DNA of 64,000 nucleotides, taken from an uncultured Clostridia bacterium (lineage in GTDB: Bacteria > Bacillota > Clostridia > Christensenellales > UBA1242). The translations under genes were made by a program, and so were the position numbers. The DNA lies in NCBI GenBank assembly GCA_944383245.1, contig CALWOU010000002.1, forward strand, positions 6,417 through 70,416, read 5' to 3'. Shown piece by piece: positions 3,812 through 55,858 of the stretch. Position 1 is the stretch's first letter. Every line of letters begins with the position of its first letter. The notes beneath the pieces are model-generated. The model searched no databases and was not told the DNA's origin. It was given only the letters and a program-made list of their open reading frames with translations.

Positions 3812-3813
3812 TT

Positions 3814-6942: not shown

Positions 6943-6969
6943 ATTTTTATAAAATCAATATCTAGTGTA

Positions 6970-7000
6970 AAAATAAAAATCTACCACTGTATGTGGTAGA
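6970..7000 (-). terminator. Element-supplied terminator downstream of tRNA-Glu
   Basis: On the minus strand, TCTACCAC-ataca-GTGGTAGA is followed by TTTTTATTTT. It occupies the position that the 1922-1946 hairpin would have held before integration. Confidence 0.6.
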
Positions 7001-7003
7001 AAA

Positions 7004-7028
7004 TGGTAGTCCCAAGGGGAATCGAACC
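7004..7028. repeat. attR: att core inside the functional tRNA-Glu 3' end
   Basis: It is identical to 1946-1970. Confidence 0.85.
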
Positions 7029-7078
7029 CCTGATCCCACCGTGAAAGGGTGGTGTCTTAACCGCTTGACCATGGGACC
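7004..7078 (-). tRNA. tRNA-Glu (anticodon UUC)
   Basis: The reverse complement folds by hand as a cloverleaf. The acceptor is GGTCCCA/TGGGACT, the anticodon stem is CCACC/GGTGG, the loop is CTTTCAC and the T-loop is GGGGTTCGATTCCCC. CCA is encoded. Confidence 0.9.
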
Positions 7079-7226
7079 ATGTCGCAACTCTCGCCATTGC
7101 TAGGGTGCTTATTTTGCCGTTTTACATTACTATGAAATGCTCGAGAATCTTAATTGTGGTTTTTATTAGTATCATCTTAAATGTGTTAAGAAGATGCGCT
7201 GGTTCTCTCCACCACCTCGCACCTTT

Positions 7227-7302
7227 TGGTGGCGATGGGTGGAATCGAACCACCGATCTATCGGGTATGAACCGATCGCTCTAACCGCTGGGCCACATCG
7301 CC
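7227..7302 (-). tRNA. tRNA with CAU anticodon (elongator Met, or Ile2 if lysidine-modified)
   Basis: The acceptor is GGCGATG/CATCGCC, the anticodon stem is ATCGG/CCGAT, the loop is TTCATAC and the T arm is GGTGG-TTCGATT-CCACC. CCA is encoded. It lacks the three G-C pairs typical of initiator tRNA. Confidence 0.88.
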
Positions 7303-18000: not shown

Positions 18001-21000
18001 TGTGGAACAAACCGACTATATTCAAGTTGATATGCGCGTGTTTTATTCTATCTACACGTTTGAGATAACAGTAGACTACGAACTAACTAATCCAAAATAT
18101 AACACCACCGACTTGCTAGTTCCTTATCCAAATATTGCACTAACATATTCGTTAGATAATGTTAGCAACACAGTGCAAGCAACAAGAGAGGAAAACACTT
18201 TAACATTTATAGGTGTTCCTTATGGCTCAAGTGTTGTGCTAAGAGTTGAAAGTTTACCTTCTGGATTCTCTTCTCAAGTCAATTGGACAATGCAAAACAA
18301 TTTAAAGCCAAACAATCCACCATATGTTTATGACACTTTAACTCTTTCAATTTCAAGAATAACACAAAATGAGGCATTTAAATACAAATTGGATTATTTG
18401 GCATACGATGTTGTGTTATCCTATAAAAATCAGGGTAGCCCGTATGTGTTAGTTAACGATGAACAAACAAATTCCGTAGAGTTATATGACAATCTTAAAA
18501 TCTTCACTAACGCAAATAAATCAAGTGGTTTCCAATTTAAGAATTTGTATTATTTTAGGCAAGAATATGTGCCATATGTGTATGATGAGGCAACTTGGAA
18601 TGAAAGTGCGCTAAGTTTGTACATTTATGAAAATGATGAGTATAGAAAAAATGATAGTTACACATATGATGAAAACTTATCCTACTTTTCACTTGAAGAT
18701 ATTAGAGTGGACTATTCTTTAAGCACAATGTATGAGGACACAGCATTCGATCCATTAAACTACAAAGTTGAAAATAATAGCATATATTTTTACATAGAGT
18801 ATGACTATATTCAAATAACAATTATTAATAATAATCTTCTTGCTAAAAATTCAGCAAGTTTAGAGATAGGCGATTTATCAACTCCTGTTAGTGATTTCAC
18901 AACTTATTCATTATTCCTAGAATCGGACGGCGAACTAATCCAAGTGGAAAATGATCGTATATTTGATTATCGCGATAAAAGAATAATAATTAGGATTGAT
19001 TTTAATGATATTATGGTGGATGGTCAACCATTCAACTTATCTCGCGGTATTGTATTAGAAAATATAACTTTCTTAAATTATCAAACTTACGCATTCACTC
19101 CTGTTGAAGGTGAGGATTATGATTATGAATTGACATTAACATTTAGTGACTTTATTGTGGACATCCCAGATTCGGGCGAATTAACAATAAATTATGTCTA
19201 TAGAGTAGAAACAGTTACAACCACAATAACAACTAATATTGAATCTTCATCGTTTTATTATAATGACAGTGGAAGAATTTTCTATTTCCAAGCAGATTCA
19301 CTAGGTTCATCTGATCCATCATTTGGTGGTAGTTCTGTAACTTCTGGTAGGGACGACACTAATTTATCTCTATCATATTCATTCCAATTTTTAGGTTTAG
19401 TTGATTTCACCTTCTGGTTTGACCAATCAACAGGTTATTCACAGTTCTTTAAAATAACAAGCATAAGAGTGTATAATTCTCAAGGTGGATTGATTGAAGA
19501 TTTTTCAAAATATGGAATTTTCACTCAACGCTCTGGCGAAGATAATAAAATAATAGAATTGATTAAAGCAAGATATATTGAAGACTTAACTATTGAGCTT
19601 ATGGTTCAACCTATCATTTATTATAATGACGCGGAAGTTATTAATGGCGATTATATTTTCACACGCGAGTTTGATTGTGATAACTATGGACTTGGAATAT
19701 CGCAAATATTATCAATTGGAACAAGTTCGGGTGATCAAATTCAAACAAGCGAGTTAATTTTGGAATCTTTAAGAGATGATTTGGGTAATTATAATGTTTA
19801 CTACACTGTTGCAGGCTCGCAAACAACTCAACCTGTTCAACCAACAAATGTAGGGCAGTATGAATTGCATTTTGATTTTAACTCAACGGGCGAATTTGAG
19901 TGGATGGATGAAATTCAACTAGATTATCACGTATATTTAATTATCACTCCGCTGGATGTTGAAATAACTTACAGCATTGATAGAACGTTTGAAAAGACAT
20001 ACGACGGCAGTTCATCTCCCGACACTAATCAAATGAATCAAGTTATACAGAGTTTAGTTATAACCGACAATTCAAGTATGAACTTAAATTATTCATCGCA
20101 ATATAATTTTGCATTATCGCCAAATATCGTTGGTAGAATCACGTATTTAGATAGAGGTCAACAGGTTGAAACTGCTAGGGCAAACGAGGATGTTTTCTAT
20201 AACATTTATTTAACAGGTTTGCAATTTGTGAATTCTTCATTAAGTTCAGATTATTTCAATATAAATAATTTCAATCTAGTAAACTCATCGCTTGCAATAA
20301 GTGCGGTGATTAAAATTAATAGAAAAGCGCTCAATATTGTAGGTCTTGCTGTGGATGATAAAGTTTATGATGGTTCGGTTGGAGTTACAATTAGTGATGA
20401 CGCAAACGTTAGGTTAAGTGGTGTTGTTGGAGATGACGATGCAAATCTAGTAATAGAAAATATTCGCCTTAGTTTTGAAAATCCAGAAATTGGAGAAAAT
20501 AAAAATATTATCGTGGAAATAAATAACACCTTAACAGGTGAGGATTCAACCAACTATAGATTAAATCCAATTTCAGGAATAACTGCAACAATTTATCCAT
20601 ATAGTGTAAGCACATATATTGAAGGTTTTGGCGAAATTGAAGTGATAAATCAACGTGGACTAACCGACCAATCTAAAGTTTCACTAATTCCAATTGGCGC
20701 AACACTAAAAGTTGGAACGTTTGATAACGATAGTTCTGAATATTTGGATATTTATAATATAATTGCGAACTATTTATCTAACGGAAGGGTGTTTGAAATT
20801 GGTTTGGTGCTAAGTTTTGAACAAAATGGCATAGAAATGAATTTGCCTAAGGATTTATATATTTCTCTTCCAAAAGTTGATAGACTTACAAACGTGGTTT
20901 ATCTAACCGGTCAAAATACAGGTGATTTAACCTATGTTGACCAAGGAGAAACAATTTTAATTGACCTAAATCAAATAAATGATGATATTGACACATTATT

Positions 21001-21148
21001 TGTTACAAAACAAAGATTGTTGCTACAATTATGGCAAATTATTTTGATTATTTTCTTATTATTGCTACTCATTATAATAATCATTATTATAGTTATTGTT
21101 TCAAGGAAAAAGAGAAAAGAAAGATATCAAACAAATGATGTTATTTAG
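15050..21148 (+). CDS. Very large secreted surface protein with a C-terminal membrane anchor (putative adhesin)
   Basis: The ATG at 15050 overlaps the trxB stop (ATGA) and follows AGGAGG. It has a signal peptide, about 1950 aa of beta-rich T/S/N/Y/D sequence, YDG-type motifs (KTYDGSS, DKVYDGSVG), and a C-terminal TM (LWQIILIIFLLLLLIIIIIIIVIV) followed by SRKKRKER. Confidence 0.85.
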   Translation: MKKKVGFIFTFALVICSLFFAMPLSGTHAYEPTDEVDSKYLITTDYDNNEVYLSNEVAGKTSGYGDFIIDERDITLSTTAQPGFKIAGWQILYVDSGTTRFVDADEAGLIDGIYTQTVEIDAEYSVDIVINYFDENSNGIKNRSTFTISRVFDDLRVEPVFEYIYYKVQVDDAKAIGNLEDFNTLPLSSLETLYYETQTDLGDRIHYSNSYIETAEGLFYYGDVYSEEVVNADSTTSTRYYTIHYRNAQAGSSEKIDYSLGGFRINEAVDYNLNINTSSDLKNSVNIEIVSAEISSSQGITTLSDNEENSIYSVETDSYLRSTRLHVNFSVVDSIDQINYLNINYNNLYLVDVVIMLDGENATGTRENDILSVVNVDNYYSQVNAKQYFAKSRESNDSYSLRVSTIDLISNTVDEVTYNYYEFSSIDGVNQLYQTYEEITDNFEVVIAYNSVQYLIDFEFVVYYNDAFNTIEGDFNVEDSISFTRGEEIIINKTATSDNVGFNFLGFALSEESFSNNSSLMIQTDEERPVNITVYMVYEFIDYTITIRNFDQITLTNNDETYYAINQINLTHLRNLNSDVYSLFANDLRADQDKAITFSVSVNLYDSITLNAITNNGFYIAGYKPNNLGSLFEGNIFSLEITQDTISQFAVDNNFDIYIFEEFTRYTVTYYIDPSLDTNTNQMVVMADIDVTAPEYANISRSFIVEGAEIDYSTRHEIVVGNLKLYDAVDLTSHGRTVTGEDGDYSYVFVRFAENDLGNLNYSVDEDSLLYTHSLQILRDISIKVVYSMQSSKLFVSLDNLNAYELSYISFYRNGTEELTMDETDNSVMVEEGELTIVLNPMFENRTFNFGYRLVGYTQTIGGVTTSYETSDTTFTIRTIGSSFQFLELNFVEMEFRLTVSQYGGGYSGEYVEFSENQTYTSLDINNLTLEFNKPEGYYVSSTYFVNIVENPYPSIFELNEEVSSIFSYTFNPTQWEEIVETYGVEQTDYIQVDMRVFYSIYTFEITVDYELTNPKYNTTDLLVPYPNIALTYSLDNVSNTVQATREENTLTFIGVPYGSSVVLRVESLPSGFSSQVNWTMQNNLKPNNPPYVYDTLTLSISRITQNEAFKYKLDYLAYDVVLSYKNQGSPYVLVNDEQTNSVELYDNLKIFTNANKSSGFQFKNLYYFRQEYVPYVYDEATWNESALSLYIYENDEYRKNDSYTYDENLSYFSLEDIRVDYSLSTMYEDTAFDPLNYKVENNSIYFYIEYDYIQITIINNNLLAKNSASLEIGDLSTPVSDFTTYSLFLESDGELIQVENDRIFDYRDKRIIIRIDFNDIMVDGQPFNLSRGIVLENITFLNYQTYAFTPVEGEDYDYELTLTFSDFIVDIPDSGELTINYVYRVETVTTTITTNIESSSFYYNDSGRIFYFQADSLGSSDPSFGGSSVTSGRDDTNLSLSYSFQFLGLVDFTFWFDQSTGYSQFFKITSIRVYNSQGGLIEDFSKYGIFTQRSGEDNKIIELIKARYIEDLTIELMVQPIIYYNDAEVINGDYIFTREFDCDNYGLGISQILSIGTSSGDQIQTSELILESLRDDLGNYNVYYTVAGSQTTQPVQPTNVGQYELHFDFNSTGEFEWMDEIQLDYHVYLIITPLDVEITYSIDRTFEKTYDGSSSPDTNQMNQVIQSLVITDNSSMNLNYSSQYNFALSPNIVGRITYLDRGQQVETARANEDVFYNIYLTGLQFVNSSLSSDYFNINNFNLVNSSLAISAVIKINRKALNIVGLAVDDKVYDGSVGVTISDDANVRLSGVVGDDDANLVIENIRLSFENPEIGENKNIIVEINNTLTGEDSTNYRLNPISGITATIYPYSVSTYIEGFGEIEVINQRGLTDQSKVSLIPIGATLKVGTFDNDSSEYLDIYNIIANYLSNGRVFEIGLVLSFEQNGIEMNLPKDLYISLPKVDRLTNVVYLTGQNTGDLTYVDQGETILIDLNQINDDIDTLFVTKQRLLLQLWQIILIIFLLLLLIIIIIIIVIVSRKKRKERYQTNDVI

Positions 21149-28833: not shown

Positions 28834-30168
28834 TTAGTTTTGAAAAAACATTATAAAATAAATAGGAATATAAATTATATTATCTTCTTCAAAAATTTTT
28901 CGTTCGTTTGAGAGAACAAAACCTCTTTTAACATTGTAATCTTTATTTTTTATAAATTTATTTATTGCACTATGAATAGTGTAATCTTTGCCAGACTTAA
29001 TCTCTAGTGGCAAAACTGAAAGATTATTGTAGTCATCTATTAGAAAATCAACCTCGCCGTTTGCTTTATTGTCGTAATAAAATAAATTATAGCCGTGCGC
29101 TTTTAATTCGCTTGCCACAAAAGATTCATAAACCGCTCCAAGATTTATGCTTTTCTCGTCATTTAAAATGGCGCGGATATTATGTTTATATAAAATATTA
29201 GTAAGAAGCCCAACGTCATTTAAATAAAGTTTTAATAAATTCTTATTGCTAGATTGAATGAGAGGGAATACCGGTGTTGAAAGCGCTTTCACTTCAAGCG
29301 CAATTCCCGAACTTATTAAATAATCAAATTCATTTTGATAACTTGAAAATCTTTTTCCTTTAATTCCTTCAATATCTTGAACCACAATGCGCTTTTTTTT
29401 GTTTTCAAGAGTTGACGGAATCAAATCGTAAATTCGTTTTATTTTTAGTTTGTGTTCGCGGTCATACTTACTAGCATCGTCGCCATACAAATCGGAAATG
29501 GTCGATTGAATTCTTCTAACTTCCATAATGTTTTGATTTTTTAAAAAACTATTTACCGCATCAGGCATTCCACCTGTGAATAAATATTTTTTCATTAAAT
29601 CTAACATTTTGTTATGTGTTGTTTCGTCTAAACTTGTTAAATTTTCAAAATTTTGCTTTAAAATATTTATTGCACTTGAATTAAATCCATTTGCAAGCAA
29701 AAATTCTTCAAAATCTAACGGATACATATGGTTGATATCAATACTTCCTATAGGAATAGAGGGAGTTTTCAATAATGTAACACCTAAAAGTGAACCACTG
29801 CATATATAAGTAAATCTGTCATCCTGTTTTAAAAATTTTAAAAGAGTTAAAAACTGTGGATATTCTTGAATCTCATCAATAAAAATAACAGTATTATCTT
29901 TATTTCCCATTTTGTTGCCTGCAAACATACTAAGTTGCAAATAAAAATCTTCTTTGCTGTTTATGTTTGCAAAAATTCTATCACTTATCGAATCTTCCAC
30001 GAAATTAATTTCTATATAATTTTTAAATTTATTTTTTAAAACCTCAGTACAAACATATCTAATTATATAAGATTTTCCAATTTGCCTAGCGCCGTCAATC
30101 AACATAATTTTATTTGATGGATTTTTTAGATAGTTTTCAATCTTCTTTTCAATCTTTCTATATAGCAT
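28834..30168 (-). CDS. AAA-family ATPase of the COG1373 type (P-loop N-domain, DUF4143-like C-domain)
   Basis: Walker A GARQIGKS, Walker B VIFIDEIQ, and a C-terminal restriction-endonuclease-like segment (EVDFLI...LPLEIKSG). Confidence 0.8.
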   Translation of the reverse strand: MLYRKIEKKIENYLKNPSNKIMLIDGARQIGKSYIIRYVCTEVLKNKFKNYIEINFVEDSISDRIFANINSKEDFYLQLSMFAGNKMGNKDNTVIFIDEIQEYPQFLTLLKFLKQDDRFTYICSGSLLGVTLLKTPSIPIGSIDINHMYPLDFEEFLLANGFNSSAINILKQNFENLTSLDETTHNKMLDLMKKYLFTGGMPDAVNSFLKNQNIMEVRRIQSTISDLYGDDASKYDREHKLKIKRIYDLIPSTLENKKKRIVVQDIEGIKGKRFSSYQNEFDYLISSGIALEVKALSTPVFPLIQSSNKNLLKLYLNDVGLLTNILYKHNIRAILNDEKSINLGAVYESFVASELKAHGYNLFYYDNKANGEVDFLIDDYNNLSVLPLEIKSGKDYTIHSAINKFIKNKDYNVKRGFVLSNERKIFEEDNIIYIPIYFIMFFQN

Positions 30169-33962: not shown

Positions 33963-35777
33963 ATGGATATTAGAAACATTGCAATAATTGCGCACGTCGA
34001 TCACGGTAAAACAAGTTTAGTAAACGCCTTGCTAAAACAAGGCGGAGTTTTTAGAGATAACCAAGAAGTGCAGGATAGAGTTATGGACTCAAATGCATTG
34101 GAGCGCGAACGTGGAATCACGATTTTAAGTAAAAACTGCTCAGCATATTACAAAAACACAAAAATCAATATTGTAGACACCCCAGGACACGCAGACTTCG
34201 GTGGCGAAGTGGAACGTGTGTTAAAAATGGTTGACGGAGTGTTGCTTGTGGTAGACGCGTTCGAAGGTCCAATGCCACAAACTCGTTTTGTGCTTGAACA
34301 CGCACTTGCACTAAACTTAAAAGTGGTTATTGTTATCAATAAGATTGATAGACCAGATGCAAGGTTAGACGTGGTTGGCGATGAAGTGCTTGAACTTATG
34401 CTTGACCTAAATGCAACAGACGAGCAATTAAATAGCCCAATCATATACACAAGCGCACGCGCTGGCACAGCAACAACTGATTACAAAGTGCCTGGCACAG
34501 ATATGTCTGTGCTATTTGAAGCAATAATAAATCACATCGACCCGCCAAAAATGAACGTGGACGCACCTTTTTCAATGCTTATTTCTTCAACCGAACACAA
34601 TGATTATTTGGGTAAACTTGCGGTTGGAAAAGTCGAAAGCGGAACAGTTAAATTAAATCAAACATTGTATATCAAAAATTATTTTGACGAAAACAAGCAT
34701 TACACAGGTAAAGCGGTAAATATTTTCAACTTCAACGGTTTAAAACGTGACCCTATTGAAGTTGGCACTGCTGGTGATATTATTTGTATTGCCGGTATTC
34801 CTGATATTACTATTGGTGACACTGTTAACGAAACAGCAGATATGCCTGCTATTCCTTTTGTTAAAATTAGCGAGCCAAGTGTGGAAATGACATTTATGGT
34901 TAACGATAGTCCGTTCGCAGGAAAAGAAGGTAAATTTGTAACAAGCCGTCACCTAAAAGAGAGATTATATAAAGAAGCGGTTAAAGATTTATCTTTGCAA
35001 GTTAGCGATGGCGACACGGCCGACCAATTCAAAGTGCGCGGACGTGGCGAAATGCACCTTAGTATTCTTATTGAAAACATGCGTAGAGATGGTTACGAAT
35101 TCCAAGTTAGCCGTCCAAGAGTTTTGTATAAATACATTGACGGCGTTAAGTGCGAACCAATAGATAAAGTGGTTATTGACGTTCCAGAAGATGCGGTAGG
35201 AACAGTTATGCAATCAATGGGTATTAAAAAAGGTGAATTGATTAGTATGACTCCTATGGGTAGCCGAATGAGATTGCAGTTTAAAGTGCCAAGCCGTGGA
35301 CTATTTGGCTATAAATCTCAGTTACTAACCGACACAAAAGGTGAAGGTGTTATGTCTAGCGTGTTTGATGCTTATGAACCATATAAAGGCGAGATTGAAG
35401 GAAGAAATTTTGGTTCCCTAATTAGTTATGAAACCGGCGAAGCTATAACTTACGGTCTATTCAACGCACAAGGTAGGGGAAGATTGCTTGTTCGCCCAGG
35501 CGATAAGGTTTATATGGGTCAAGTGGTTGGAGTGAACCCAAAAGGCGACGATATTGTAGTGAACGTTTGCAAGAAAAAGCAACTTACGAACACACGTTCA
35601 AGTTCTAGTGACGAAGCATTAAGGTTAACACCTATTCAAGATATGACGCTTGAAGAAGCCCTTGAATTTATTGCAGACGACGAACTTGTGGAAGTAACAC
35701 CAAAGTCAATTCGTATTAGAAAAGCAATTTTGGACCACCAATTGCGCGCAAAAGCAAGAAAACCAGTTGTTGAATAA
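33963..35777 (+). CDS. typA: Translational GTPase TypA/BipA
   Basis: G1 AHVDHGKTS, G3 DTPGHADF and G4 NKID motifs, with a BipA-type C-terminal domain. Confidence 0.95.
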   Translation: MDIRNIAIIAHVDHGKTSLVNALLKQGGVFRDNQEVQDRVMDSNALERERGITILSKNCSAYYKNTKINIVDTPGHADFGGEVERVLKMVDGVLLVVDAFEGPMPQTRFVLEHALALNLKVVIVINKIDRPDARLDVVGDEVLELMLDLNATDEQLNSPIIYTSARAGTATTDYKVPGTDMSVLFEAIINHIDPPKMNVDAPFSMLISSTEHNDYLGKLAVGKVESGTVKLNQTLYIKNYFDENKHYTGKAVNIFNFNGLKRDPIEVGTAGDIICIAGIPDITIGDTVNETADMPAIPFVKISEPSVEMTFMVNDSPFAGKEGKFVTSRHLKERLYKEAVKDLSLQVSDGDTADQFKVRGRGEMHLSILIENMRRDGYEFQVSRPRVLYKYIDGVKCEPIDKVVIDVPEDAVGTVMQSMGIKKGELISMTPMGSRMRLQFKVPSRGLFGYKSQLLTDTKGEGVMSSVFDAYEPYKGEIEGRNFGSLISYETGEAITYGLFNAQGRGRLLVRPGDKVYMGQVVGVNPKGDDIVVNVCKKKQLTNTRSSSSDEALRLTPIQDMTLEEALEFIADDELVEVTPKSIRIRKAILDHQLRAKARKPVVE

Positions 35778-35972
35778 AAACAATCTTTTAAATTTTACCT
35801 TTTTCCTGCTTTTACGAAGGTTTAAAAACAAATATTTAGTGTTAAATCAATTTTCAAATAACCACAAAATGTGGTATAATGCTAGTAGATTAAAATTATA
35901 TGTAGGCTTTAATAACAACAAATAAAATTATATCTGTACGTTTAACAATTAAAAAAAACAATAAGGAGAGAT

Positions 35973-36233
35973 ATGCGTCCAACAAACGACACTTTTAAAA
36001 ACATTATGAAAGTAGGTAAGCGAATTGGAATTACTATTCTAATTTGCATTCCTATTATGGTTGCGTTTGGATATCTAACTAGAAATGTGATAACTGCAGA
36101 TTGGGCGCAAATTCTTTGTTTTATGGCTATAATGGCGGTGGCGGTAACCATTGAAGAACTTATATCTCGTTATAGAGAAAAGAAGAAAAAAGTTGAAATT
36201 GAAACCGAACCAAAACGCGATGTATATAAATAG
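35973..36233 (+). CDS. Small membrane protein (two TM helices, basic C-terminus)
   Basis: 86-aa ORF with an AAGGAGAG ribosome-binding site. A TGGTATAAT extended -10 lies at about 35868-35880. Confidence 0.6.
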   Translation: MRPTNDTFKNIMKVGKRIGITILICIPIMVAFGYLTRNVITADWAQILCFMAIMAVAVTIEELISRYREKKKKVEIETEPKRDVYK

Positions 36234-36238
36234 TCTCA

Positions 36239-36317
36239 GTTTATGTGGCTTTCCTCAGGTGCCAAAGCAATATCGTCAAGCCACACAAACTTCGCCTCGA
36301 CCCGCGGGGGCATAAGG
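36239..36317 (+). repeat. Structured GC-rich repeat, copy 1 (13-bp stem plus conserved tail), 79 nt
   Basis: The stem is GTTTATGTGGCTT/AAGCCACACAAAC, with one mismatch at position 5 and a 26-nt loop. The tail is TTCGCCTCGACCCGCGGGGGCATAAGG. Confidence 0.8.
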
Positions 36318-36360
36318 TTTAATTAAAATTTATGCAGTTGAAATCTGAACGTAAACATTC

Positions 36361-36388
36361 TTCGCATTGACCCGCGGGGGCTATAAGG
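36361..36388 (+). repeat. Structured GC-rich repeat, copy 2 (tail only)
   Basis: TTCGCATTGACCCGCGGGGGCTATAAGG. The following roughly 25 nt also resemble the sequence after copy 1. Confidence 0.75.
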
Positions 36389-36475
36389 ATTTATTGAAAT
36401 TAATGTAGTTAATCAAAAAAATTTTTATCAATTAGTGTAAAAGAAGAAATTATAAACTTTTAACAAGGAGATTAT

Positions 36476-37063
36476 ATGAAGCTTTTAAAAGATATTGATT
36501 GGAAACCAAATAGCGAAGGAGATATTTGTGTTAGAAGTGAATTTAAAAAAATAATTCCAGCACCACTTTTAAAAGCTGTTTTAATTTTATATGATTTAAA
36601 CATTCGAACTGTTTCGTGTGGAATGGGAGACGATTTTGGAATATCTATTGACTATGATTGTTTAAGTGAAGAAAATAAAAAGATTGCAGATGAATACATG
36701 AAAAGAAAAAAGATGGAACTTTCTAAGCCGTGCGCGCATGCACCAGAGAGAAGATTTCGTCTTGGTGTTAAAATTGATGAAAATAAAGTTGGTGAAAAAC
36801 AAGCGGAAAAATTGATACTAAAAGAATTAGAAGATTTAGGATTGAAAAAGCAGGACGTTATGTATGGATTTAGTTCAATGCAAGATAAAATCCGCCAATG
36901 GAAAGATGTTGATTTAGACGTGACGGATGATATACTTATAGATAGTTATAAAGAAGTGTATTTCGTTGATGAAAATAATGTTGTATGGGAAAATGAAGAG
37001 TTGTATAATAAACATATAGCATATGAGAATGAATTAAATATTCAAAATAATCAAACAATTTAA
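36476..37063 (+). CDS. Hypothetical protein (195 aa) lying between the repeat copies
   Basis: AAGGAG ribosome-binding site. No motif was recognised. Confidence 0.65.
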   Translation: MKLLKDIDWKPNSEGDICVRSEFKKIIPAPLLKAVLILYDLNIRTVSCGMGDDFGISIDYDCLSEENKKIADEYMKRKKMELSKPCAHAPERRFRLGVKIDENKVGEKQAEKLILKELEDLGLKKQDVMYGFSSMQDKIRQWKDVDLDVTDDILIDSYKEVYFVDENNVVWENEELYNKHIAYENELNIQNNQTI

Positions 37064-37087
37064 ATTTAGGAAATAAAGGAGTGTGTT

Positions 37088-37132
37088 ATGGCTGATAAGA
37101 AAGCAAAAATTCAACCAAATGATTTAGAATGA
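37088..37132 (+). other. Mini-ORF that duplicates the first 14 codons of dnaB (MADKKAKIQPNDLE-stop)
   Basis: AAAGGAG ribosome-binding site. 38/42 nt are identical to 37242-37283, and all 4 differences are synonymous third-position changes. The TGA stop lies 4 nt before the copy 3 stem. Confidence 0.6.
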
Positions 37133-37136
37133 TCTC

Positions 37137-37215
37137 GAGAAATCCACGTTCCGTTTAGAACTCCGTTAGGCTCTACACGTGGATATCTCTCGCCTTAATC
37201 CGCGGGAGCATAAGG
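37137..37215 (+). repeat. Structured GC-rich repeat, copy 3 (13-bp stem plus conserved tail), 79 nt
   Basis: The stem is GAGAAATCCACGT/ACGTGGATATCTC, with one mismatch at position 5 and a 27-nt loop. The tail is TCGCCTTAATCCGCGGGAGCATAAGG. Confidence 0.8.
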
Positions 37216-37241
37216 ATATAGAAATTTAGTAAGGAGGATAT

Positions 37242-38675
37242 ATGGCAGATAAAAAGGCAAAAATTCAACCCAATGATTTAGAAGCAGAGCAAAGTTTGCT
37301 TGGCGCGCTGTTTTTAAGTAAAGATGCGTGCGCGGACGTGTTTCCAAACTTAAACGCAAATGATTTTTATTCAGGGGCGCATAAAAAGATATATCAAGCG
37401 ATGCTAGATAATTATTTTAAAGACGTTGCGATTGACTACATCACGGTTAGCAAAGTGTTAAGTGATAAGGGCGAGTTGGAAGAAGTTGGCGGGCTTGAAT
37501 ATATCACCGATTTAACGCAATATGTTCCAAGTGCGGCAAACTATAAGTATTATGTTGACATCATTAAAAATGATAGTATTTTGCGCCAAATCATTGAAGC
37601 GTGCCAAAACACTATTAATGAAGCATTTGAAAATAATAGTGCGAGTGAAGTGTTAGAACGCGCCGAAAAATATATTTTTGATATTTCTCAAACGCGTAGG
37701 ACAAACGACCTTGAACACATTAAAAAAGGTGTTGCCGAAGCGATTGATTTAATGGAAAAAATATCAATCGACCCTAACGCAAACACAGGTATTAAAGTTG
37801 GTTTCCCAACCCTTGATAAAATCACAAACGGCTTTAAACCTGGCGAACTTATCATTATTGCGGCGCGCCCTGGTATTGGTAAAACCACGTTAGCCGTAAA
37901 CTTTGCAATAAATTCTGCAATTAAGCACAAGAAAACTATTGCAATGTTCGACCTTGAGATGAGCGCACTTCAAGTGGCGCAACGTTTTATATGTTCCACC
38001 GGTCGCGTTCCTATGGACGCAGTTAAAGGCGGAAGCAAAGATAATAACGTTTGGTCAACCTTATTTGAAACAAAGAAAATTTTGGAAGACGCAAATATTT
38101 ATGTTGACGACACTACAACAATAACCCCTGCTGAAATTTTGTCTAAATGTAGAAAATTAAAAGCACAATCTGGGCTAGATATGGTTATTATTGACTATTT
38201 GCAACTTATGAAAAGCGAGCGCGCAAATAAGGACGGAAATCGTCAACAAGAAGTTGCCGAATTAACACGTTCAATCAAACTTGCAGCGCGTGAACTAGGT
38301 GTTCCAATTTTGTTACTATCTCAATTAAATCGTGAAAGCGAAAAACGTGCAGATAAAACTCCGCAACTAAGTGATTTAAGAGAATCTGGTTCAATCGAAC
38401 AGGACGCAGATATTGTTATGTTTATTGCAGACATCGCAAGCGAAAACGCAAAAGAAGATTCAACTGATGATGCACTAGATTATTCGCTTGTTATTGCAAA
38501 ACATAGAAATGGTATGCGTGGCACAATTCCAATTAAGTGGAAGAGTGAGTTCACTCAATTCTACGAACCTGGAAAGGACACATTATACACCAAAAACACA
38601 AGCAAAATTCAAAAAGGCGACGTGTTAACTCCAGTTGAAAATTCAGAAATAGACGACATTTTCAGCGAAGAATAA
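37242..38675 (+). CDS. dnaB: Replicative DNA helicase DnaB
   Basis: N-terminal PNDLEAEQSLLGALF, Walker A ARPGIGKTTLA, Walker B VIIDYLQLM and the SQLNRESE arginine-finger region. Confidence 0.96.
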   Translation: MADKKAKIQPNDLEAEQSLLGALFLSKDACADVFPNLNANDFYSGAHKKIYQAMLDNYFKDVAIDYITVSKVLSDKGELEEVGGLEYITDLTQYVPSAANYKYYVDIIKNDSILRQIIEACQNTINEAFENNSASEVLERAEKYIFDISQTRRTNDLEHIKKGVAEAIDLMEKISIDPNANTGIKVGFPTLDKITNGFKPGELIIIAARPGIGKTTLAVNFAINSAIKHKKTIAMFDLEMSALQVAQRFICSTGRVPMDAVKGGSKDNNVWSTLFETKKILEDANIYVDDTTTITPAEILSKCRKLKAQSGLDMVIIDYLQLMKSERANKDGNRQQEVAELTRSIKLAARELGVPILLLSQLNRESEKRADKTPQLSDLRESGSIEQDADIVMFIADIASENAKEDSTDDALDYSLVIAKHRNGMRGTIPIKWKSEFTQFYEPGKDTLYTKNTSKIQKGDVLTPVENSEIDDIFSEE

Positions 38676-38721: not shown

Positions 38722-39153
38722 ATGTTATTTGTTGATAATTTGGGAAATAGTTTAGACTTTGACGTTGTCGGTTATGAATTTGAAGAAAATAAAAATGCGA
38801 AAGATTTTGATTGGGACGCAAATTGGTTAACAATAAAAATAGTTTACGATAAAGATGATTATAAACAAGAGTATTATTCTTCATGCATTCTAACAATGGA
38901 GTTAAAAGATTTCGTTTCAGATTTAGAAAAACTAAAAAATGGTGTGGTTGATAGTTGTGAACTTAACGCGTTTGAACCATATCTTAAAATGAGTGTTAAA
39001 AAAGATAAAGATAATTATATTTTCAATATAGAATTTATTTATAATAGGTCAACAGGCGAAAAACTAACTTTCACTTCAAATTTAAGCAACACCGAATTTG
39101 ATTATATCTTTAAAGAAATGAAAGAATTATCAAAAAAATATAAGGTAAGATAA
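38722..39153 (+). CDS. Hypothetical protein, possibly an orphan WapI-like immunity protein
   Basis: 143 aa with the pattern LDFDVVGYEFEENKNAKDFDWDANWLTIKI ... FEPYL. I recall this from small toxin-immunity proteins, so the assignment is from memory only. Confidence 0.35.
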   Translation: MLFVDNLGNSLDFDVVGYEFEENKNAKDFDWDANWLTIKIVYDKDDYKQEYYSSCILTMELKDFVSDLEKLKNGVVDSCELNAFEPYLKMSVKKDKDNYIFNIEFIYNRSTGEKLTFTSNLSNTEFDYIFKEMKELSKKYKVR

Positions 39154-49487: not shown

Positions 49488-52046
49488 ATGAAAGACACTG
49501 TTTTTGAAAAAATAGACAACACCCGTTATATCGACGTGGACGTTGAACAAACTATGAAAACCTCGTTTATTGATTATGCAATGGCTGTTAATATTTCGCG
49601 TGCTATTCCAGATGTTAGAGACGGACTAAAGCCGGTTCATAGGCGCATTCTTTATGCTATGAACGAAATGGGGCTTACCAGCGACAAACCTTATAGAAAA
49701 TGTGCAACTGTGGTGGGTCAGGTTATGGGTAGATATCATCCACACGGAGATAGTTCTATTTACGACGCACTTGTCCGCCTTGCGCAAGATTTCACAATTA
49801 ATGAGCCATTAATTGACGGTCACGGTAACTTTGGCAACGAAGATGGCGACGGCGCTGCTGCTATGCGTTACACAGAGTGTAGATTAAGTAAGGTTGCAGA
49901 CGAACTACTTAGAGATATTGATAAAAACACGGTTGACTTTGTTCCAAACTTTGATGAGCAATATATGCAACCAACCGTGCTTCCAAGTAGATTTCCAAAT
50001 TTGCTTGTAAATGGTAGTGATGGAATTGCTGTCGGTATGGCAACAAACATTCCTCCGCACAATCTAAACGAAGTGATTGATGCGGTTGTTGCAATGATTG
50101 ACAATCCTAATATATCGATTGAAGAGTTGATGCAGATTGTACCAGCGCCAGATTTTCCGTCTAGGTGCGAAATTTTGGCAAACAATGCCATTCGCGAGGC
50201 ATATAGAACAGGTCACGGCGGTGTGGTTATGCGCGCCAAAACCGAGTTTGAAACGTTTGATGACGGAAAAAGGTATAGGATTGTTGCAACCTCTATTCCT
50301 TATCAAGTGAATAAAGCAAACTTGGTAAAACAAATTGCAAATCTTGTTAAAGATAAAAAGATTGAAGGTATTTCAGATTTGCGTGACGAATCTGGTCGTG
50401 ACGGACTAAGAATTGTGGTTGAATTAAAGAGAGACGCAAATCCAAACGTTGTGCTAAATCAACTATTTAAAATGAGCCAACTTCAACTCAATTTTAGCAT
50501 AAATTTCTTAGCACTTGTTGGAAAAGAACCGCGAGTTTTAAACCTTCAAGAGATGATTTTCTATTATCTAAATTTCCAGCGCGAAGTGATAGTAAGGCGC
50601 ACAAAGTACGACCTTAACCGCGCAGAAGAACGCGCGCATATTTTAGAAGGTTTGGTTATTGCAGTTTCAAATATCGATGAGGTTATTCAAATAATTAAAA
50701 CAAGCCCAGATAGACAAACGGCACAAACTAGTTTGCAAAATAGATTTGAAATAACCGAAAGGCAATCAAACGCAATTTTAGAGATGAAATTATCTCGCCT
50801 AACCGGGCTAGAAGTCGAAAAATTAAACAGCGAATTGAAAGAATTGGAACTACTTATTGATAAATTAAAATCAATCCTTGCAGATAGTTCAAAAATAGAT
50901 GATATTATTCGCACAGAACTATTAGAAATAAAAGAAAAATATCCAACTCCAAGAAAGAGCGAAATTCGCTACGACGCAGAAGATATTGATATAGGTGATT
51001 TAATCGAACGTCACGATGTTGTTATTTCTCTAACAAGAGAAGGTTATATCAAACGTTTGCCTGTTAGTGAATATAAGTCGCAACATAGAGGCGGAAGAGG
51101 AGTAAATGCGCACAAAACAAAGGAAGAAGATAACATTATTTCAATGTTTGTTGCAAATAGCCACGATGATTTAATGTTCTTTTCTAATCTTGGTAAAGTT
51201 TATGTTTTGCGAGCGTATTACATTCCAGAGGCGGGAAGGCAAAATAAAGGTAGAGCGCTTGTAAACTTATTGCAACTATCTAGCGAAGAGAAAATTTGCA
51301 CTGTTATAAAACTAGATAGAAGTGAAGATGTTTCGCTTGTGATTGCAACTAAAAATGCTCTCATTAAGAAAACTAAAATTAGCGAGTTTAATGAGGTTAG
51401 AAAGAATGGTAAAATCGCAATTAAATTAAACGAGGGTGATAGTCTGGTTGGTGCAGTCTTAGTTCGTCCAAACGATGAATTGTTGATAGCGTCAAGCAGT
51501 GGAAAATGTTTGCGATTTAACGAAAATAATATTCGCCCAATGGGAAGAACGGGTCACGGTGTTCGCTCTATGCGAATTGGTAAGGATGAAAGCATAATAG
51601 ATATAATAAGGCTTGACCCTAATATGGATATTTTAACTGTTACAGAAAAAGGATATGCAAAACGCACTCGCATTGAAGATTATAGAGTTCAAAAACGTCA
51701 CGGAAAAGGAATAAAGGCAGGAACATTTAACGAAAAAACAGGTAAAGTTGTTGCGCTTAAATCAATTAGTTCGGATAAGGACATTTTGGCAATTTCTTCA
51801 GACGGTGTTATGATTAGAACGCACGCAGATAGTGTAAACCTTGTTGGTAGAAATAGTTTAGGAGTTCGTCTTATGAAAGTGAGCGCAAGCGATTTTGTGG
51901 TTAGTGTTGCAGTTGTGGATAGAGATGAGGATGAAGAAATAGCAACCGAAACAAGCGAAAGCCCACAAGTTGATAATTCGGAAAACATAGAGTCTAACGA
52001 AAACTCAAACGAAATCAGAAATGAAGAAAATGAGTCAAACGAATAA
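49488..52046 (+). CDS. gyrA: DNA gyrase subunit A (with an acidic C-terminal tail)
   Basis: It has RAIPDVRDGLKPVHRR, the active-site AAMRYTE and the beta-pinwheel C-terminal domain. The tail is rich in E/N/S. Confidence 0.97.
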   Translation: MKDTVFEKIDNTRYIDVDVEQTMKTSFIDYAMAVNISRAIPDVRDGLKPVHRRILYAMNEMGLTSDKPYRKCATVVGQVMGRYHPHGDSSIYDALVRLAQDFTINEPLIDGHGNFGNEDGDGAAAMRYTECRLSKVADELLRDIDKNTVDFVPNFDEQYMQPTVLPSRFPNLLVNGSDGIAVGMATNIPPHNLNEVIDAVVAMIDNPNISIEELMQIVPAPDFPSRCEILANNAIREAYRTGHGGVVMRAKTEFETFDDGKRYRIVATSIPYQVNKANLVKQIANLVKDKKIEGISDLRDESGRDGLRIVVELKRDANPNVVLNQLFKMSQLQLNFSINFLALVGKEPRVLNLQEMIFYYLNFQREVIVRRTKYDLNRAEERAHILEGLVIAVSNIDEVIQIIKTSPDRQTAQTSLQNRFEITERQSNAILEMKLSRLTGLEVEKLNSELKELELLIDKLKSILADSSKIDDIIRTELLEIKEKYPTPRKSEIRYDAEDIDIGDLIERHDVVISLTREGYIKRLPVSEYKSQHRGGRGVNAHKTKEEDNIISMFVANSHDDLMFFSNLGKVYVLRAYYIPEAGRQNKGRALVNLLQLSSEEKICTVIKLDRSEDVSLVIATKNALIKKTKISEFNEVRKNGKIAIKLNEGDSLVGAVLVRPNDELLIASSSGKCLRFNENNIRPMGRTGHGVRSMRIGKDESIIDIIRLDPNMDILTVTEKGYAKRTRIEDYRVQKRHGKGIKAGTFNEKTGKVVALKSISSDKDILAISSDGVMIRTHADSVNLVGRNSLGVRLMKVSASDFVVSVAVVDRDEDEEIATETSESPQVDNSENIESNENSNEIRNEENESNE

Positions 52047-52821
52047 AATAAACATTCACGCAGGTCATCGCCAAAGGCTGAAAAACAAAGCGAGTGATTT
52101 TGGTCTTTCAGCCTTTAATGACCACGAAGTGTTAGAGCTTATGCTGACCTATGTTATTCCGCAAAAGGACACAAATCCACTTGCGCACAAACTCTTAAAC
52201 GAATTTGGCAGTTTTTATAAAGTTTTTGAAGCGAGCGAACACGAATTGTTAAAAATCGATGGAGTTGGCAAAGAAACTGCTAGATTTATTCCGTTTTTAG
52301 GTGCTTTAACTGAAAGGATTGAAAAAAGCAAAAGAAGTGCATATAAAAATCGAAAAATTTTGCGTTCAACCAAACAATGCGCGGATTATTTTTTATCAAA
52401 TTACACTGTTGGCAACACTGAGCATTGCTATTTTATTTGTTTGGATGAGCAACACGCATTGATTAAAACAATTGAATATACAGGTGCAGATAGCGCGCTT
52501 GTTAGAGTGAATTTAAACGATTTATTAGAACAAATTAGAAAACTGAACGCAAAAGAGGTTGTTATGATTCACACGCATCCGCACGGAAGCGTTATGCCAA
52601 GCGAGGAAGATATTAAAAGCACTTGCCAGATATTTAAAAAGTTGTTTTACCTTGATATTATGCTGAAAGCGCACCTAATTTTCAATGAATCCACGCATTA
52701 TAGTATGGATAAGGAAATTCAAGATTATCGTAACTATTTAATTGAGTTAGAGGCAGAACTTTCTAGAAAGAACAACACTAATATCAATCAAATTATAACA
52801 AATAGAAAAATGTCTAATTAA
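52021..52821 (+). CDS. radC: RadC-family (JAMM-like) protein
   Basis: It has helix-hairpin-helix LLKIDGVGKETA and the JAMM box HTHPHGSVMPSEED. It overlaps the gyrA end by 26 nt; the ATG at 52030 is an alternative start. Confidence 0.85.
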   Translation: MKKMSQTNKINIHAGHRQRLKNKASDFGLSAFNDHEVLELMLTYVIPQKDTNPLAHKLLNEFGSFYKVFEASEHELLKIDGVGKETARFIPFLGALTERIEKSKRSAYKNRKILRSTKQCADYFLSNYTVGNTEHCYFICLDEQHALIKTIEYTGADSALVRVNLNDLLEQIRKLNAKEVVMIHTHPHGSVMPSEEDIKSTCQIFKKLFYLDIMLKAHLIFNESTHYSMDKEIQDYRNYLIELEAELSRKNNTNINQIITNRKMSN

Positions 52822-53936: not shown

Positions 53937-54569
53937 TTATTTAATGTTGAAAATATGTGGATATTTTTTTAAAATTTCTCGTGAAGCATATAATCTAGAT
54001 TCATATTCATAGCGAGTTAACACTGTTTCACGTTTATCTAAACATCCAATGTGGTGCAATAAATATTTATTTTGAGTTGACAAAAGTGCGCGTGAATGAA
54101 TAGGGTTTTTAAGTGCAGATAAATATAAGTCATCCAAAAAATTTTGATATTCTTCACTTTCTCGTGGAATAGATTTAGACTTAAAATATAGAGTTTGATT
54201 TGTTCTCCAATCTTCAAGCAAATTGGCACAGCGAGTATGATAGGCATCCACTCCAAAATATTTAAACACACTATTTTGTATTTTTCTATTCTTATGCTTT
54301 ATCCCTTGTAAAACACCTTCAATCGAGTTTACTAATTTACCTTTAAATCTAAATTTAATCGGATAAAGATTGGATAGCACCCTGCAAATACTTTCTTTTG
54401 AGCCGTAAAAAATATTATAAAAATTTTCCCCAACTGCAATCTTTATTTTATTTTCTGGATCCTCAACTAGTTCGCCTTTAAAATATATTTTATCATTAAC
54501 TTTTTCTAAATCTACATAATTAAAACTTTCTCTTAATTTTTTAAACTCTTCTTTTATTTCCTTATTCAT
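53937..54569 (-). CDS. NADAR (YbiA/DUF1768)-like protein
   Basis: FYGSKESICRVLSNLYPIKFRFKGKLVNSIEGVLQGIKH fits the NADAR pattern F..(n)LSNF...F.G..F.S.E..FQA.K. The later ALLSTQNKYLLHH fits LL.T....L.EH. The ATG at 54569 follows AGGGG, in frame with the track ORF ending at 54584. Confidence 0.5.
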   Translation of the reverse strand: MNKEIKEEFKKLRESFNYVDLEKVNDKIYFKGELVEDPENKIKIAVGENFYNIFYGSKESICRVLSNLYPIKFRFKGKLVNSIEGVLQGIKHKNRKIQNSVFKYFGVDAYHTRCANLLEDWRTNQTLYFKSKSIPRESEEYQNFLDDLYLSALKNPIHSRALLSTQNKYLLHHIGCLDKRETVLTRYEYESRLYASREILKKYPHIFNIK

Positions 54570-54577
54570 AATAACCC

Positions 54578-54775
54578 CTACCAATCGTTTTTTCTGTTTG
54601 GAACTTTAATATCGTCATAAAATTTAAGATATTTATCCAACTCATTATTTTTTTGAAGATTAATTTTTAAATTGTTTTTATTTGGATTATTTAAAATTTC
54701 AAGTTTTAATTTTTCAATGTCTTTATTATTTAATTTGCTTTTTGGTGGCTCTTTTAATATAACAGGTTTTTTCAT
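54578..54775 (-). CDS. Hypothetical 65-aa basic protein immediately upstream of the NADAR-like gene
   Basis: Its stop lies 9 nt before the next start. It is K/N-rich, with no motif recognised. Confidence 0.45.
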   Translation of the reverse strand: MKKPVILKEPPKSKLNNKDIEKLKLEILNNPNKNNLKINLQKNNELDKYLKFYDDIKVPNRKNDW

Positions 54776-55156
54776 AAAAATATTATATCATAATATTTAA
54801 TTAATTGCAATAATTAAATGGTTATAATAAATTTTAGAAAATATAATTTAATTAAAAAAAATATAATTTAATTTAAAAGTATAATAATTAAAAAAAAATA
54901 AAAAAATAAAAAAATTAAATTATTAAAATAAAAAATTAAAATAAACTTGAAATTAAAATTGTAAAAATAAAAAAATATTTAAATACTTTAAAAAATTAAT
55001 AAAAAATATTAAAAAATTAATAAAAAATATCAAAAAATATAAAAAATAAAGCATTTTTTAGTGATTTTTTAAAAATTTATCTAATTTTTGCTTTATTTTT
55101 TTATTAAAATAATTTTTTTATAAATTTTATTTTTGAAATGATTTTCTATTTTCCTT

Positions 55157-55702
55157 TTAAATACCCTTTTGGCGCTTTTCGTTTAGCGGACTTAAAATAA
55201 CTTTTCCCTCTTTTAAACTTTTTTGAACGTCTATTATTCGTTGATTGCTTGAACCTTTAAATCTAAGTGTGATGTCTTTTTTATCAAGTTCAAACTTTCC
55301 GTCAACAATAATATCTATGTAAGATAAAAGTTCGCGTGTAATTTTTGTGTGCGCTCTGCTAGGAGATAATAGTTCGCTATCAAATAAGTAACCTGTGTAG
55401 CACCAAATGTTTTTATTTGGAAGTTCTGCTTTAACGCGCTTTATAAAGGGTAGAAGTGCTTGTTGATTTGCTGGTTCCATTGGTTCGCCACCAAGAAGAG
55501 TGAGCCCTGCAATATAACTAGGTTTTAAACTTTCAATGATTTTATCTTCAACTTCGCGCGTAAAATCTTCACCATAATTAAAGTCCCACGCAATCTCGTT
55601 AAAACAGCCTTTGCAGTGATGCGTGCAACCACTCACAAACAGGGAAGTTCTAACGCCTTCCCCGTTTGCAATATCGTTGTACTTAATGTTTGCATATTTC
55701 AT
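55157..55702 (-). CDS. nrdG: Anaerobic ribonucleotide reductase activating protein (radical SAM)
   Basis: It has the CxxxCxxC cluster in GCTHHCKGCFN, a typical N-terminus (YNDIANGEGVRTSLFVSGC) and the size expected for NrdG. Confidence 0.92.
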   Translation of the reverse strand: MKYANIKYNDIANGEGVRTSLFVSGCTHHCKGCFNEIAWDFNYGEDFTREVEDKIIESLKPSYIAGLTLLGGEPMEPANQQALLPFIKRVKAELPNKNIWCYTGYLFDSELLSPSRAHTKITRELLSYIDIIVDGKFELDKKDITLRFKGSSNQRIIDVQKSLKEGKVILSPLNEKRQKGI

Positions 55703-55858
55703 AAATTTTTCTTTTAATAACTAATAATTTTTTAAAATATTATAAAAATTTTTATTTTTTATTAAATTTTTATCTATTTTTTAGTATTTTTAATATATTT
55801 TCAAATAATTTTTAATGTTATGTAAATTTTTTTAATTTTTTAATGTAAACATTATTTT

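Follow-up and report, generated by a model that had tools for sequence, protein, structure and literature searches.

A palindromic repeat unit with a constrained hairpin in the ORF86-dnaB spacer of an Onthoplasma-like species

The 64,000-nt stretch of an uncultured Clostridia bacterium analyzed here (from contig CALWOU010000002.1; hereafter the window) carries a small group of GC-rich repeats upstream of dnaB, the gene of the replicative helicase. The local order is typA (33963-35777), the open reading frame (ORF) ORF86, a repeat unit called A, a truncated unit, ORF195, a stub of the dnaB start ended by TGA, a second intact unit called B and, finally, dnaB. The feature is best classed as an intergenic palindromic repeat unit, seen in one lineage at one locus. 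A first-pass annotation had proposed three GC-rich copies in this position, and both a pattern count against shuffled sequence and a repeat search bear it out. The GC-rich box pattern TCGCMTNNAYCCGCGGGRGC occurs exactly three times in the 64 kb (36292, 36362 and 37190), each time on the + strand, for a chance expectation of 0.01; three matches were reached in none of 100 shuffles. The box was also recovered by the repeat search as a three-copy direct repeat.

One repeat unit of ~110 nt opens with a stop codon and TCTC; a hairpin, a box and an AT-rich trailer come next. The hairpin is made of a 13-14 bp stem and a 26-29 nt loop. The GC-rich box, 27-nt-long, follows the scheme TCGCC..CCGCGGG..GC..TAAGG. 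Boxes are spaced 64-70 nt apart, and the trailers of all units resemble one another. The units of the window are the following:

36234..36317, + strand: unit A (copy 1 of the first-pass annotation), beginning at the ORF86 stop codon, with a TCTC flank (36234-36237), hairpin (36238-36291) and box (36292-36317)
36238-36291, + strand: stem of unit A, 14 bp with one A-C mismatch and a 26-nt loop
36318..36348, + strand: AT-rich trailer of unit A, TTTAATTAAAATTTATGCAGTTGAAATCTGA, which forms the palindrome 36310-36335 with the end of the box
36349..36388, + strand: 5'-truncated C-type unit (copy 2), with a 3'-arm remnant ACGTAAACATTCT (36349-36361) and box (36362-36388)
37130..37215, + strand: unit B (copy 3), with TGA and a TCTC flank, hairpin (37137-37189) and box (37190-37215)
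37137-37189, + strand: stem of unit B, 13 bp with one A-A mismatch and a 27-nt loop, homologous to the stems of C and D

An inverted-repeat search places the arms of hairpin A at 36238-36251/36278-36291 (14 nt, 93% complementary, 26 nt apart) and those of hairpin B at 37137-37149/37177-37189 (13 nt, 92% complementary, 27 nt apart). Copies 1 and 3 had been described as 79 nt each, with 13-bp stems that share no sequence; the length is correct, and the stems of 13-14 bp do have unrelated arms. Folded alone, hairpin A reaches -17.7 kcal/mol (z -3.7 versus shuffles) and hairpin B -18.4 kcal/mol (z -2.6). When the flanks are included in the fold, only A still stands out. A further palindrome with 16-nt arms, GCATAAGGTTTAATTA/TAATTAAAATTTATGC, is formed at 36310-36335 by the end of box 1 and the trailer; some other units, though not unit B, could pair in a similar way.

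The hairpin types C and D were added by comparison with other strains and with a sister lineage. This comparison covers 29 contigs from many samples, obtained by exact-protein look-ups and all belonging to the species of the window (Candidatus Onthoplasma faecipullorum-like); L-numbers designate the loci compared. Two details of the initial description had to be amended in its light. Copy 2 was taken as a conserved tail only; it also holds the 3' arm ACGTAAACATTCT of a third hairpin type, intact elsewhere as C, and in both its 3' arm and its box this truncated unit agrees with the intact C unit of L002, L100 and L108. The stem mismatch, said to fall at the same fifth position in both copies, depends on the register: anchored on TCTC/TCGCC, it lies at position 6 in A and 5 in B, at positions 5-6 in C, and nowhere in D. 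In units A, B, C and D, the hairpin begins 4-5 nt past a stop codon, which is TAG, TGA or TAA.

The spacer is highly variable among strains, with 19 architectures in the 29 contigs. The forms differ in the units that are present and in the leader, long or short, that separates them from dnaB:

Box only, long leader, dnaB: the L098 type, in five samples
One intact unit C, long leader, dnaB: L108 and L111
Unit A followed by a truncated C unit, then the long leader and dnaB: L115
Box alone before the short leader and dnaB: L099/L112
Unit A, its box an A/B hybrid, then the short leader and dnaB: L114
Unit A and a truncated C unit whose box is a hybrid, then the short leader and dnaB: L117
Hybrid hairpin with the C 5' arm and the B 3' arm, outer pairs broken: L109
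Hybrid hairpin with the B 5' arm and the C loop and 3' arm, outer pairs broken: L116
Window-like forms with both dnaB starts, with or without ORF195

These forms indicate that the units recombine box with box and hairpin with hairpin, giving deletions, duplications and hybrids. Box-to-box hybrid junctions are found in L099, L114 and L117. Box hybrids share only 7-10 nt and thus cannot be assembly chimeras. Some other strains carry 5'-truncated units of the A type. The 19 architectures of this one species, whose genome is below 1 Mb, form a natural series of the birth, duplication, hybridization and loss of a structured repeat, including a segmental duplication that replaced the start of the essential gene dnaB.

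The wider distribution points to a recent origin. In the sister lineage L091 (GCA_964515505.1), whose DnaB is 94% identical, two tandem units, D and E, follow the ORF86 homologue, and the dnaB start is not duplicated. Unit D has a perfect 13-bp stem GGGATAGCCCCGC/GCGGGGCTATCCC between TCTC and TCGCC flanks, a loop starting with TCCGTTT and the box TCGCCTTAACCCGCGGGGGCAGTAAGG; the stem of unit E is decayed. These tandem units (L091 536-800, ~140 nt each) have a repeated trailer, ...CTGCAA(G/A)C(G/A)AACTAT(C/T)GCGTGGTT, that is not present in the units of the window. In the lineages with DnaB at 88% and 86% identity, the spacer is 36 and 14 nt long, and in the nearest species genomes (79% and 75%) dnaB follows the ORF86 homologue after ~100 and 27 nt, in all cases with no repeat. 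The order typA-ORF86-dnaB with an empty spacer of 14-100 nt is seen in L009, L010, L092-094 and L106-107 (DnaB 75-88% identical). The comparison of dnaB upstream regions proposed by the first-pass annotation thus confines the repeats to the species and its sister L091. Empty spacers in the relatives, together with the units of L091, indicate that the unit was recently gained and is common to two sister lineages.

The pairing of the hairpin is under constraint, as judged from the aligned stems, which are kept while their sequence drifts. The arms of B, C and D are only 6-9/13 (46-69%) identical, and 7 of the 13 pairs are changed on both sides with pairing kept. In this alignment, 91% of the cells pair, compared with 27-64% when the 3' partners are slid, and its covariation score was reached in none of 500 shuffles. 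One pair of hairpin B occurs among strains as C-G, U-G and U-A; C-A was never seen. The arms of type A show only random identity to those of the other types (~3/13), while its box is identical to the other boxes at 16-18/20 positions. A covariance model (R1), built from B, C and D with type A left out, nevertheless detects type A with 43 bits (E 8e-12) and gives the truncated unit (copy 2) a score of 38.6 bits. For intact hairpins, the folding z values range from -2.6 to -4.1; the hybrid hairpin of L109, at -0.6, and the decayed unit E, at +0.4, are not stable beyond shuffles. The claim that structure is conserved while sequence diverges therefore holds, with seven double changes of 13, none of 500 shuffles and the detection of A by R1. 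Further copies with compensatory stem changes, sought as a check on that claim, were found in types C and D.

The same features could belong to a tolerated palindromic fragment without function, its compensation coming from ancestry, intrastrand palindrome repair or chance. Contigs without a hairpin (7 of 29), the decayed unit E, the hybrids of L109 and L116, and a narrow distribution with a high turnover would all fit such neutral material. The nature of the changes makes this quite improbable. B and C differ at nine arm positions, eight of which fall in four exactly complementary pairs, for which a rough estimate gives ~2e-4 under neutrality; B and D have more. Moreover, four hairpin types hold a length of 13-14 bp between the same flanks, and the U-G intermediate is seen while C-A is not.

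Between unit types, the box is the best-kept part of the unit, with 15-18/20 positions conserved. It might contain a second structure, which is plausible without covariation support: in an RNAalifold fold, 84% of the cells pair, compared with 37-61% when slid, yet there is a single both-sided change, equalled in 308 of 500 shuffles. This bears on the change from CCC-GCG-GGG to TCC-GCG-GGA that had been read as compensatory. It is one event common to related copies and does not rise above the shuffle control.

A dedicated cis-regulatory RNA of the dnaB leader would give the box a role: a protein or the ribosome would recognize it, and the hairpin would tune expression. The box may fold as CCUUA/UAAGG plus a 3-bp hairpin with a GCG loop, sequestering the Shine-Dalgarno-like UAAGG. 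Every unit lies on the coding strand, all 29 contigs and L091 retain at least one box directly before leader and dnaB, and the conservation and predicted fold of the box are in line with this reading. Still, we consider it unlikely. Relatives with 75-88% DnaB identity have no box, with dnaB behind a spacer of 14-100 nt. The last box cannot be removed by repeat-repeat recombination, which always leaves one copy, so its retention is no evidence of function. Copies 1 and 2 precede ORF195 or the stub rather than dnaB, the box fold does not exceed shuffles, and no Rfam match was obtained up to E 10.

Rfam searches of the window gave no family, the gathering score being reached only by two tRNAs. 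At E values up to 10, the regions 35700-37500 of the window and 450-950 of L091 produced only chance matches far below gathering scores. Nor is the hairpin taken for a ligand sensor or a catalytic RNA. The statement that the repeat matches no known riboswitch, ribozyme, T-box, attC site or terminator stands, given the Rfam result and hairpins that qualify neither as attC sites nor as terminators. ARAGORN found no tRNA or transfer-messenger RNA (tmRNA) in four unit-bearing loci of strains and the sister lineage; an element derived from either, recognized neither by ARAGORN nor by the Rfam tRNA model, was discarded.

The dnaB start is present twice around copy 3 (37087-37129 and 37241-37283), as a direct repeat of 43 nt with 91% identity that the first-pass annotation had missed. 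The region reads as follows:

36389..36475, + strand: long leader, the AT-rich native region upstream of the ancestral dnaB start, split by ORF195 and resuming at ~37064-37087
37076..37132, + strand: ancestral dnaB ribosome-binding site (RBS, 37076-37081) and start ATG 37088 with 14 codons MADKKAKIQPNDLE, ended by TGA (37130-37132)
37216..37241, + strand: short leader with a second RBS, AAGGAGG (37231-37237)
37242..38675, + strand: dnaB, replicative helicase (Pfam DnaB and DnaB_C), whose first 14 codons duplicate 37088-37129

The sequence 37076..37132 is the real dnaB start in L098, L101, L103-105, L108, L111 and L115, and in L098 and L108 the long leader runs straight into it. The long leader contains a weak promoter-like site (36394-36422) in a consensus scan. 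The first bases of the short leader, which are the trailer of unit B, align with the start of the other trailers, and the short leader probably arose from the long one via an internal deletion. Unit B opens with TGA and TCTC, as does unit C directly after ORF86 in L002 and L108 (TGATGCTC). Copy 3 would accordingly come from a tandem duplication with its ends at the stop codon of ORF86 and at codon 14 of dnaB, followed by the leader deletion in the downstream copy. Such a duplication would have left the old start as a 14-codon stub, with the new RBS and start behind unit B. Part of the supposed family of three is thus a local segmental duplication and a 5' truncation, not a set of independent members.

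Between any two stub alleles, or a stub allele and the second start, there are 3-7 changes, all synonymous. The stub alleles are real or recently real starts exchanged among strains, which explains the synonymous-only differences. Selection of the 14-codon stub as a peptide was rejected, as the pattern comes from alleles that act as starts elsewhere. Similar facts might suggest recoding or splicing, with a hop or splice from the GAA before TGA 37130 to the GAA at 37281-37283, as in T4 gene 60. Take-off and landing codons match, a stop follows the take-off codon with the hairpin 4 nt later, and the upstream 14 codons vary among strains only synonymously. Nonetheless, the codon that ends the stub, TGA in the window, is TGG in 11 of the 19 stub-bearing contigs (L002, L003, L006, L096, L100, L102, L110, L113 and L116 among the loci). 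The second copy has a strong AAGGAGG and an ATG of its own. In strains without unit B, dnaB starts at the first copy, which accounts for the synonymous pattern. At 153 nt, the gap would also be three times as long as the one in T4 gene 60. A bypass of copy 3, or its removal by splicing, is therefore extremely improbable, effectively refuted by the TGA/TGG polymorphism and by the use of the first start where unit B is lacking. An alternative code with TGA as a sense codon was also rejected: the 17,618 codons of the window include 94 TGG and no in-frame TGA, 5 of 51 ORFs stop at TGA, and the standard genetic code is used. Public gene calls with sense TGA run through the repeats and give artefactual ORFs of 36, 46, 95 and 122 aa (L002 2275-2562 and 2847-2957, L111 2068-2436, L116 2348-2488).

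The repeat may instead act at the DNA level, as a single-stranded hairpin with a box recognized by a structure-specific enzyme encoded elsewhere, whose cutting drives the rearrangements; tyrosine or HUH recombinases, relaxases and transposases of the repetitive extragenic palindrome (REP) or IS200 type would be candidates. A hairpin of fixed stem length and free sequence beside a conserved flank fits this idea. Integron attC sites, origins of transfer and IS200/IS605 ends typically show such a geometry. In three 5'-truncated units the break lies close to where the loop meets the 3' arm, accessory genes are gained and lost at this hot spot, and the + strand would serve as lagging-strand template, provided that replication runs in the direction of rising GC skew. 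On balance, this reading is distinctly unlikely. No transposase, relaxase, reverse transcriptase or cas gene was found among the 61 window ORFs scanned, and the sole recombinase-type match, a tyrosine integrase, lies at a distance of 30 kb next to tRNA genes. No unit lies at the junctions of ORF195 or of the metallo-beta-lactamase-fold, WapI and NUDIX genes, attC-type R''/R' boxes are not in the hairpins, all junctions fit homologous recombination or microhomology, and no copy was found at any other site searched.

A bolder form of this idea is that hairpin and 27-nt box are the site of an undescribed structure-specific enzyme cutting at the loop/3'-arm junction, which could be a recombinase of single-stranded DNA or an RNA-processing or reverse-transcribing activity. 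The replacement of the type A arms and the constant truncation breakpoint leave a small chance for such a new mechanism. If true, the enzyme would generate 5'-truncated units, replacement of whole arm pairs (A versus B/C/D) and duplications of gene ends, making the spacer a new kind of site-specific diversification hot spot beside dnaB in gut Clostridia with reduced genomes.

The accessory genes that come and go near dnaB, among strains with identical or almost identical DnaB, are ORF195, a NUDIX gene, two metallo-beta-lactamase-fold genes, a WapI immunity gene and a DUF2441 gene; the repeat is not present at any of their junctions. The two metallo-beta-lactamase-fold proteins (212 and 226 aa) have faint to clear matches to the Apyc1 anti-Pycsar family. 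The variable zones lie at 36476-37063 and 38722-39153 in the window, at 1829-2347 in L099, in L108-L117, and at about 4455-5093 and 3009-3647 in L002/L003.

The units are most likely co-transcribed with the flanking genes, since they lie on the coding strand, no terminator is predicted and some strains leave no apparent room for a dnaB promoter. No terminator-like site was found in the ORF86-dnaB spacer. In L114 and L109, nothing but a hairpin, a box and a leader of 22 nt lies between ORF86 and the essential dnaB; with dnaB directly behind it, the hairpin is no efficient terminator. Together with the 26-29 nt loops and a stem followed by TCGCC, this led to the rejection of an intrinsic terminator. 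The following features frame the putative transcript:

35851..35880, + strand: promoter-like site (TTTTCA or TTCAAA, TG-extended TATAAT) with 10/12 consensus matches and TG before the second hexamer
35973..36233, + strand: ORF86, a small predicted membrane protein, found between typA and dnaB throughout the clade
36476..37063, + strand: ORF195, a strain-variable accessory gene inserted in the long leader and not bounded by repeats

The promoter-like site is likely the start of the ORF86-dnaB transcript that would carry the repeats. Homologues of ORF86 occupy the same position in L009, L010, L092 and L106.

The favored explanation, held with evenly balanced confidence, is that of a recently acquired palindromic repeat unit, comparable to REPs and bacterial interspersed mosaic elements (BIMEs), that reshuffles by recombination between units and that, if active, acts as an intercistronic stem-loop. 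The unit would have entered the ORF86-dnaB spacer in the recent common ancestor of the Candidatus Onthoplasma faecipullorum-like species and its sister. It would then have multiplied and been reshuffled in place, not by transposition but through segmental tandem duplication and unequal homologous recombination of unit with unit, copy 2 being a 5'-truncated unit. The units would be transcribed within the ORF86-dnaB mRNA, where a stem-loop 4-5 nt past the stop codon might influence mRNA processing or stability, or translational coupling. If the hairpin or the box affects the dnaB mRNA, it would be an example of a very young regulatory RNA; if an enzyme recognizes the unit, a new structure-specific site would be defined.

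Several observations weigh against this explanation. The hairpin is dispensable, as 7 of the 29 contigs have none, and hybrids with broken stems also exist; either its benefit is small or the constraint serves the propagation of the element itself. B and C have a 23-nt identical stretch in common, so the hairpin hybrids L109 and L116 could be metagenome assembly chimeras. The breakpoint near the loop/3'-arm junction in all three 5'-truncated units is not what random deletion predicts. The arms of A are unrelated to those of B/C/D although the boxes are 80-90% identical, which makes gradual divergence unlikely and hints at a replacement of the arms. The wobble pairs are contradictory and establish neither the strand nor whether the RNA or the DNA is acted on: U-G occurs once on the + strand, but the A-C mismatches of A and C correspond to G-U on the - strand. 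Finally, dispersed copies may exist elsewhere, the window being ~7% of the genome. This fraction follows from the size of Onthoplasma genomes (family UBA1242), ~0.8-0.9 Mb (PMC12306168).

Searches beyond the locus were uniformly negative. With filters off, R1 gave no further significant match in the window beyond the spacer; two marginal matches (29234-29315 and 52045-52124, E 0.05-0.1) lie within genes and have no box. In ~850 kb of loci, R1 found nothing outside the species and L091. The covariance-model search suggested by the first-pass annotation thus yielded no copy beyond one spacer of the species and its sister. Its conclusion, a selected RNA or single-stranded DNA structure, stands for the constraint on the stem, and there is no sign of a wider family in the sequences searched. 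Hairpin covariation alone is no sign of a widespread RNA family. Scans with the box pattern gave no match in viral contigs or in the genomes of 185,579 species, and two in metagenome contigs, both chance matches in GC-rich DNA without a hairpin. BLAST against phages and plasmids returned AT-rich chance matches only.

In comparison with known systems, the likeness to the REPs and BIMEs of Enterobacteria and Pseudomonas is twofold. These are GC-rich imperfect palindromes in transcribed spacers just past stop codons, and they are mosaics of palindromic units and extra-palindromic motifs, strain-variable and prone to recombination. REPs are described as stabilizing the upstream mRNA and affecting translation near the stop codon. 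Units A-D share the position of the palindrome past the stop codon in a spacer that is probably transcribed. REPs and BIMEs, however, number tens to hundreds of near-identical copies, dispersed in both orientations, with REP-associated tyrosine transposases (RAYTs). The present unit occupies one spacer in one orientation, with arms wholly different between types and a 26-29 nt loop. No copy lies outside the spacer in the 64-kb window, and no RAYT (Y1 transposase) gene was found among its ORFs scanned against Pfam, both results covering the same ~7% of the genome.

Integron attC sites likewise keep hairpin geometry with free sequence and internal mismatches, are found on one strand and lie in zones of gene presence and absence. 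In the present unit, by contrast, the conserved part is the 27-nt box 3' of the stem. A pattern search for R'' RYYYAAC and R' GTTRRRY in 36101-37400 on both strands gave one pair, off both hairpins. The arms of hairpin A read GTTT...AAAC, the inverse of the attC order, and B has neither box. No integron integrase was found near the locus, and the accessory genes are not bounded by units.

IS200/IS605 ends, palindrome-associated transposable elements (PATEs), origins of transfer (oriT) and rolling-circle nick regions also combine a subterminal hairpin with a conserved single-stranded flank, which an HUH enzyme would recognize. Hairpins of these elements are nonetheless conserved in sequence within a family, and they occur in left/right pairs or accompanied by a gene for a relaxase or Rep protein. 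Nothing of this kind was found here, nor were copies at other sites. Intercistronic stability stem-loops are similarly located between two cistrons, a few nt past the stop and without a U tract, but they are normally single and conserved with the operon, whereas the unit is lineage-specific, multiplied and often lost. Yeast mitochondrial GC clusters and Rickettsia palindromic elements form GC-rich palindromic islands in AT-rich reduced genomes, too, and are thought to be selfish and to promote recombination. They have many dispersed copies, some within genes, while the unit is restricted to one locus in the available sequence.

Other classes were discarded. A miniature inverted-repeat transposable element (MITE) does not fit, as the ends TCTC... 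and ...GCATAAGG are not inverted repeats, there is a single locus and the sole flanking duplication consists of 43-57 nt from dnaB and shows allelic differences. The segments between boxes (64-70 nt) are homologous and no cas genes occur among the ORFs scanned, unlike in an array of clustered regularly interspaced short palindromic repeats (CRISPR). Repeats of a type III toxin-antitoxin system, which are tandem repeats of ~36 nt ahead of a toxin of the ToxN/AbiQ type, were rejected, since ORF195 has no family match and units persist in strains without it. DnaA boxes, a dif/Xer site and a sigma-70 promoter in the box were considered by eye, and none held.

ORF195 has no match in Pfam, NCBIfam or PHROGs, and 11 homologues were found. 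In another species (L118 493-1740), a 56%-identical homologue and a 79-aa ORF directly follow the ORF86 homologue, so the same insertion spot has been used in different lineages, without the hairpin repeat. A role of ORF195 as partner enzyme was discarded, given the lack of a family match, the few homologues and the occurrence of the 56%-identical one in a repeat-free spacer.

The window is an ordinary bacterial chromosome with ~31% G+C, and its genes include rpsF-ssb-rpsR, HU, typA, dnaB, yqeY, dtd, metG, gyrBA and nrdDG. Its DnaB is identical to, or 1-4 residues off, cluster members that include Candidatus Onthoplasma faecipullorum HJD05498.1. NCBI places the genus Onthoplasma in the Christensenellales. 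The tyrosine (phage-type) integrase (5752-6900) adjoins tRNA-Glu and tRNA-Met (7004-7302), with a Cro/C1-type helix-turn-helix gene (2043-2540) and several ORFs without family match nearby; 2043-7302 is probably a small integrated element. An ORF of 2037 aa (15035-21148), very long given a genome below 1 Mb, has a YDG domain near the C-terminus as its sole Pfam match. The lowest G+C content of the window, 24.7%, is reached at 54001-56000. A homologue of the phage protein Gp30.3 (53937-54584) lies in this low-G+C region (53937-56000), beside RadC (52021-52821) and nrdD/nrdG.

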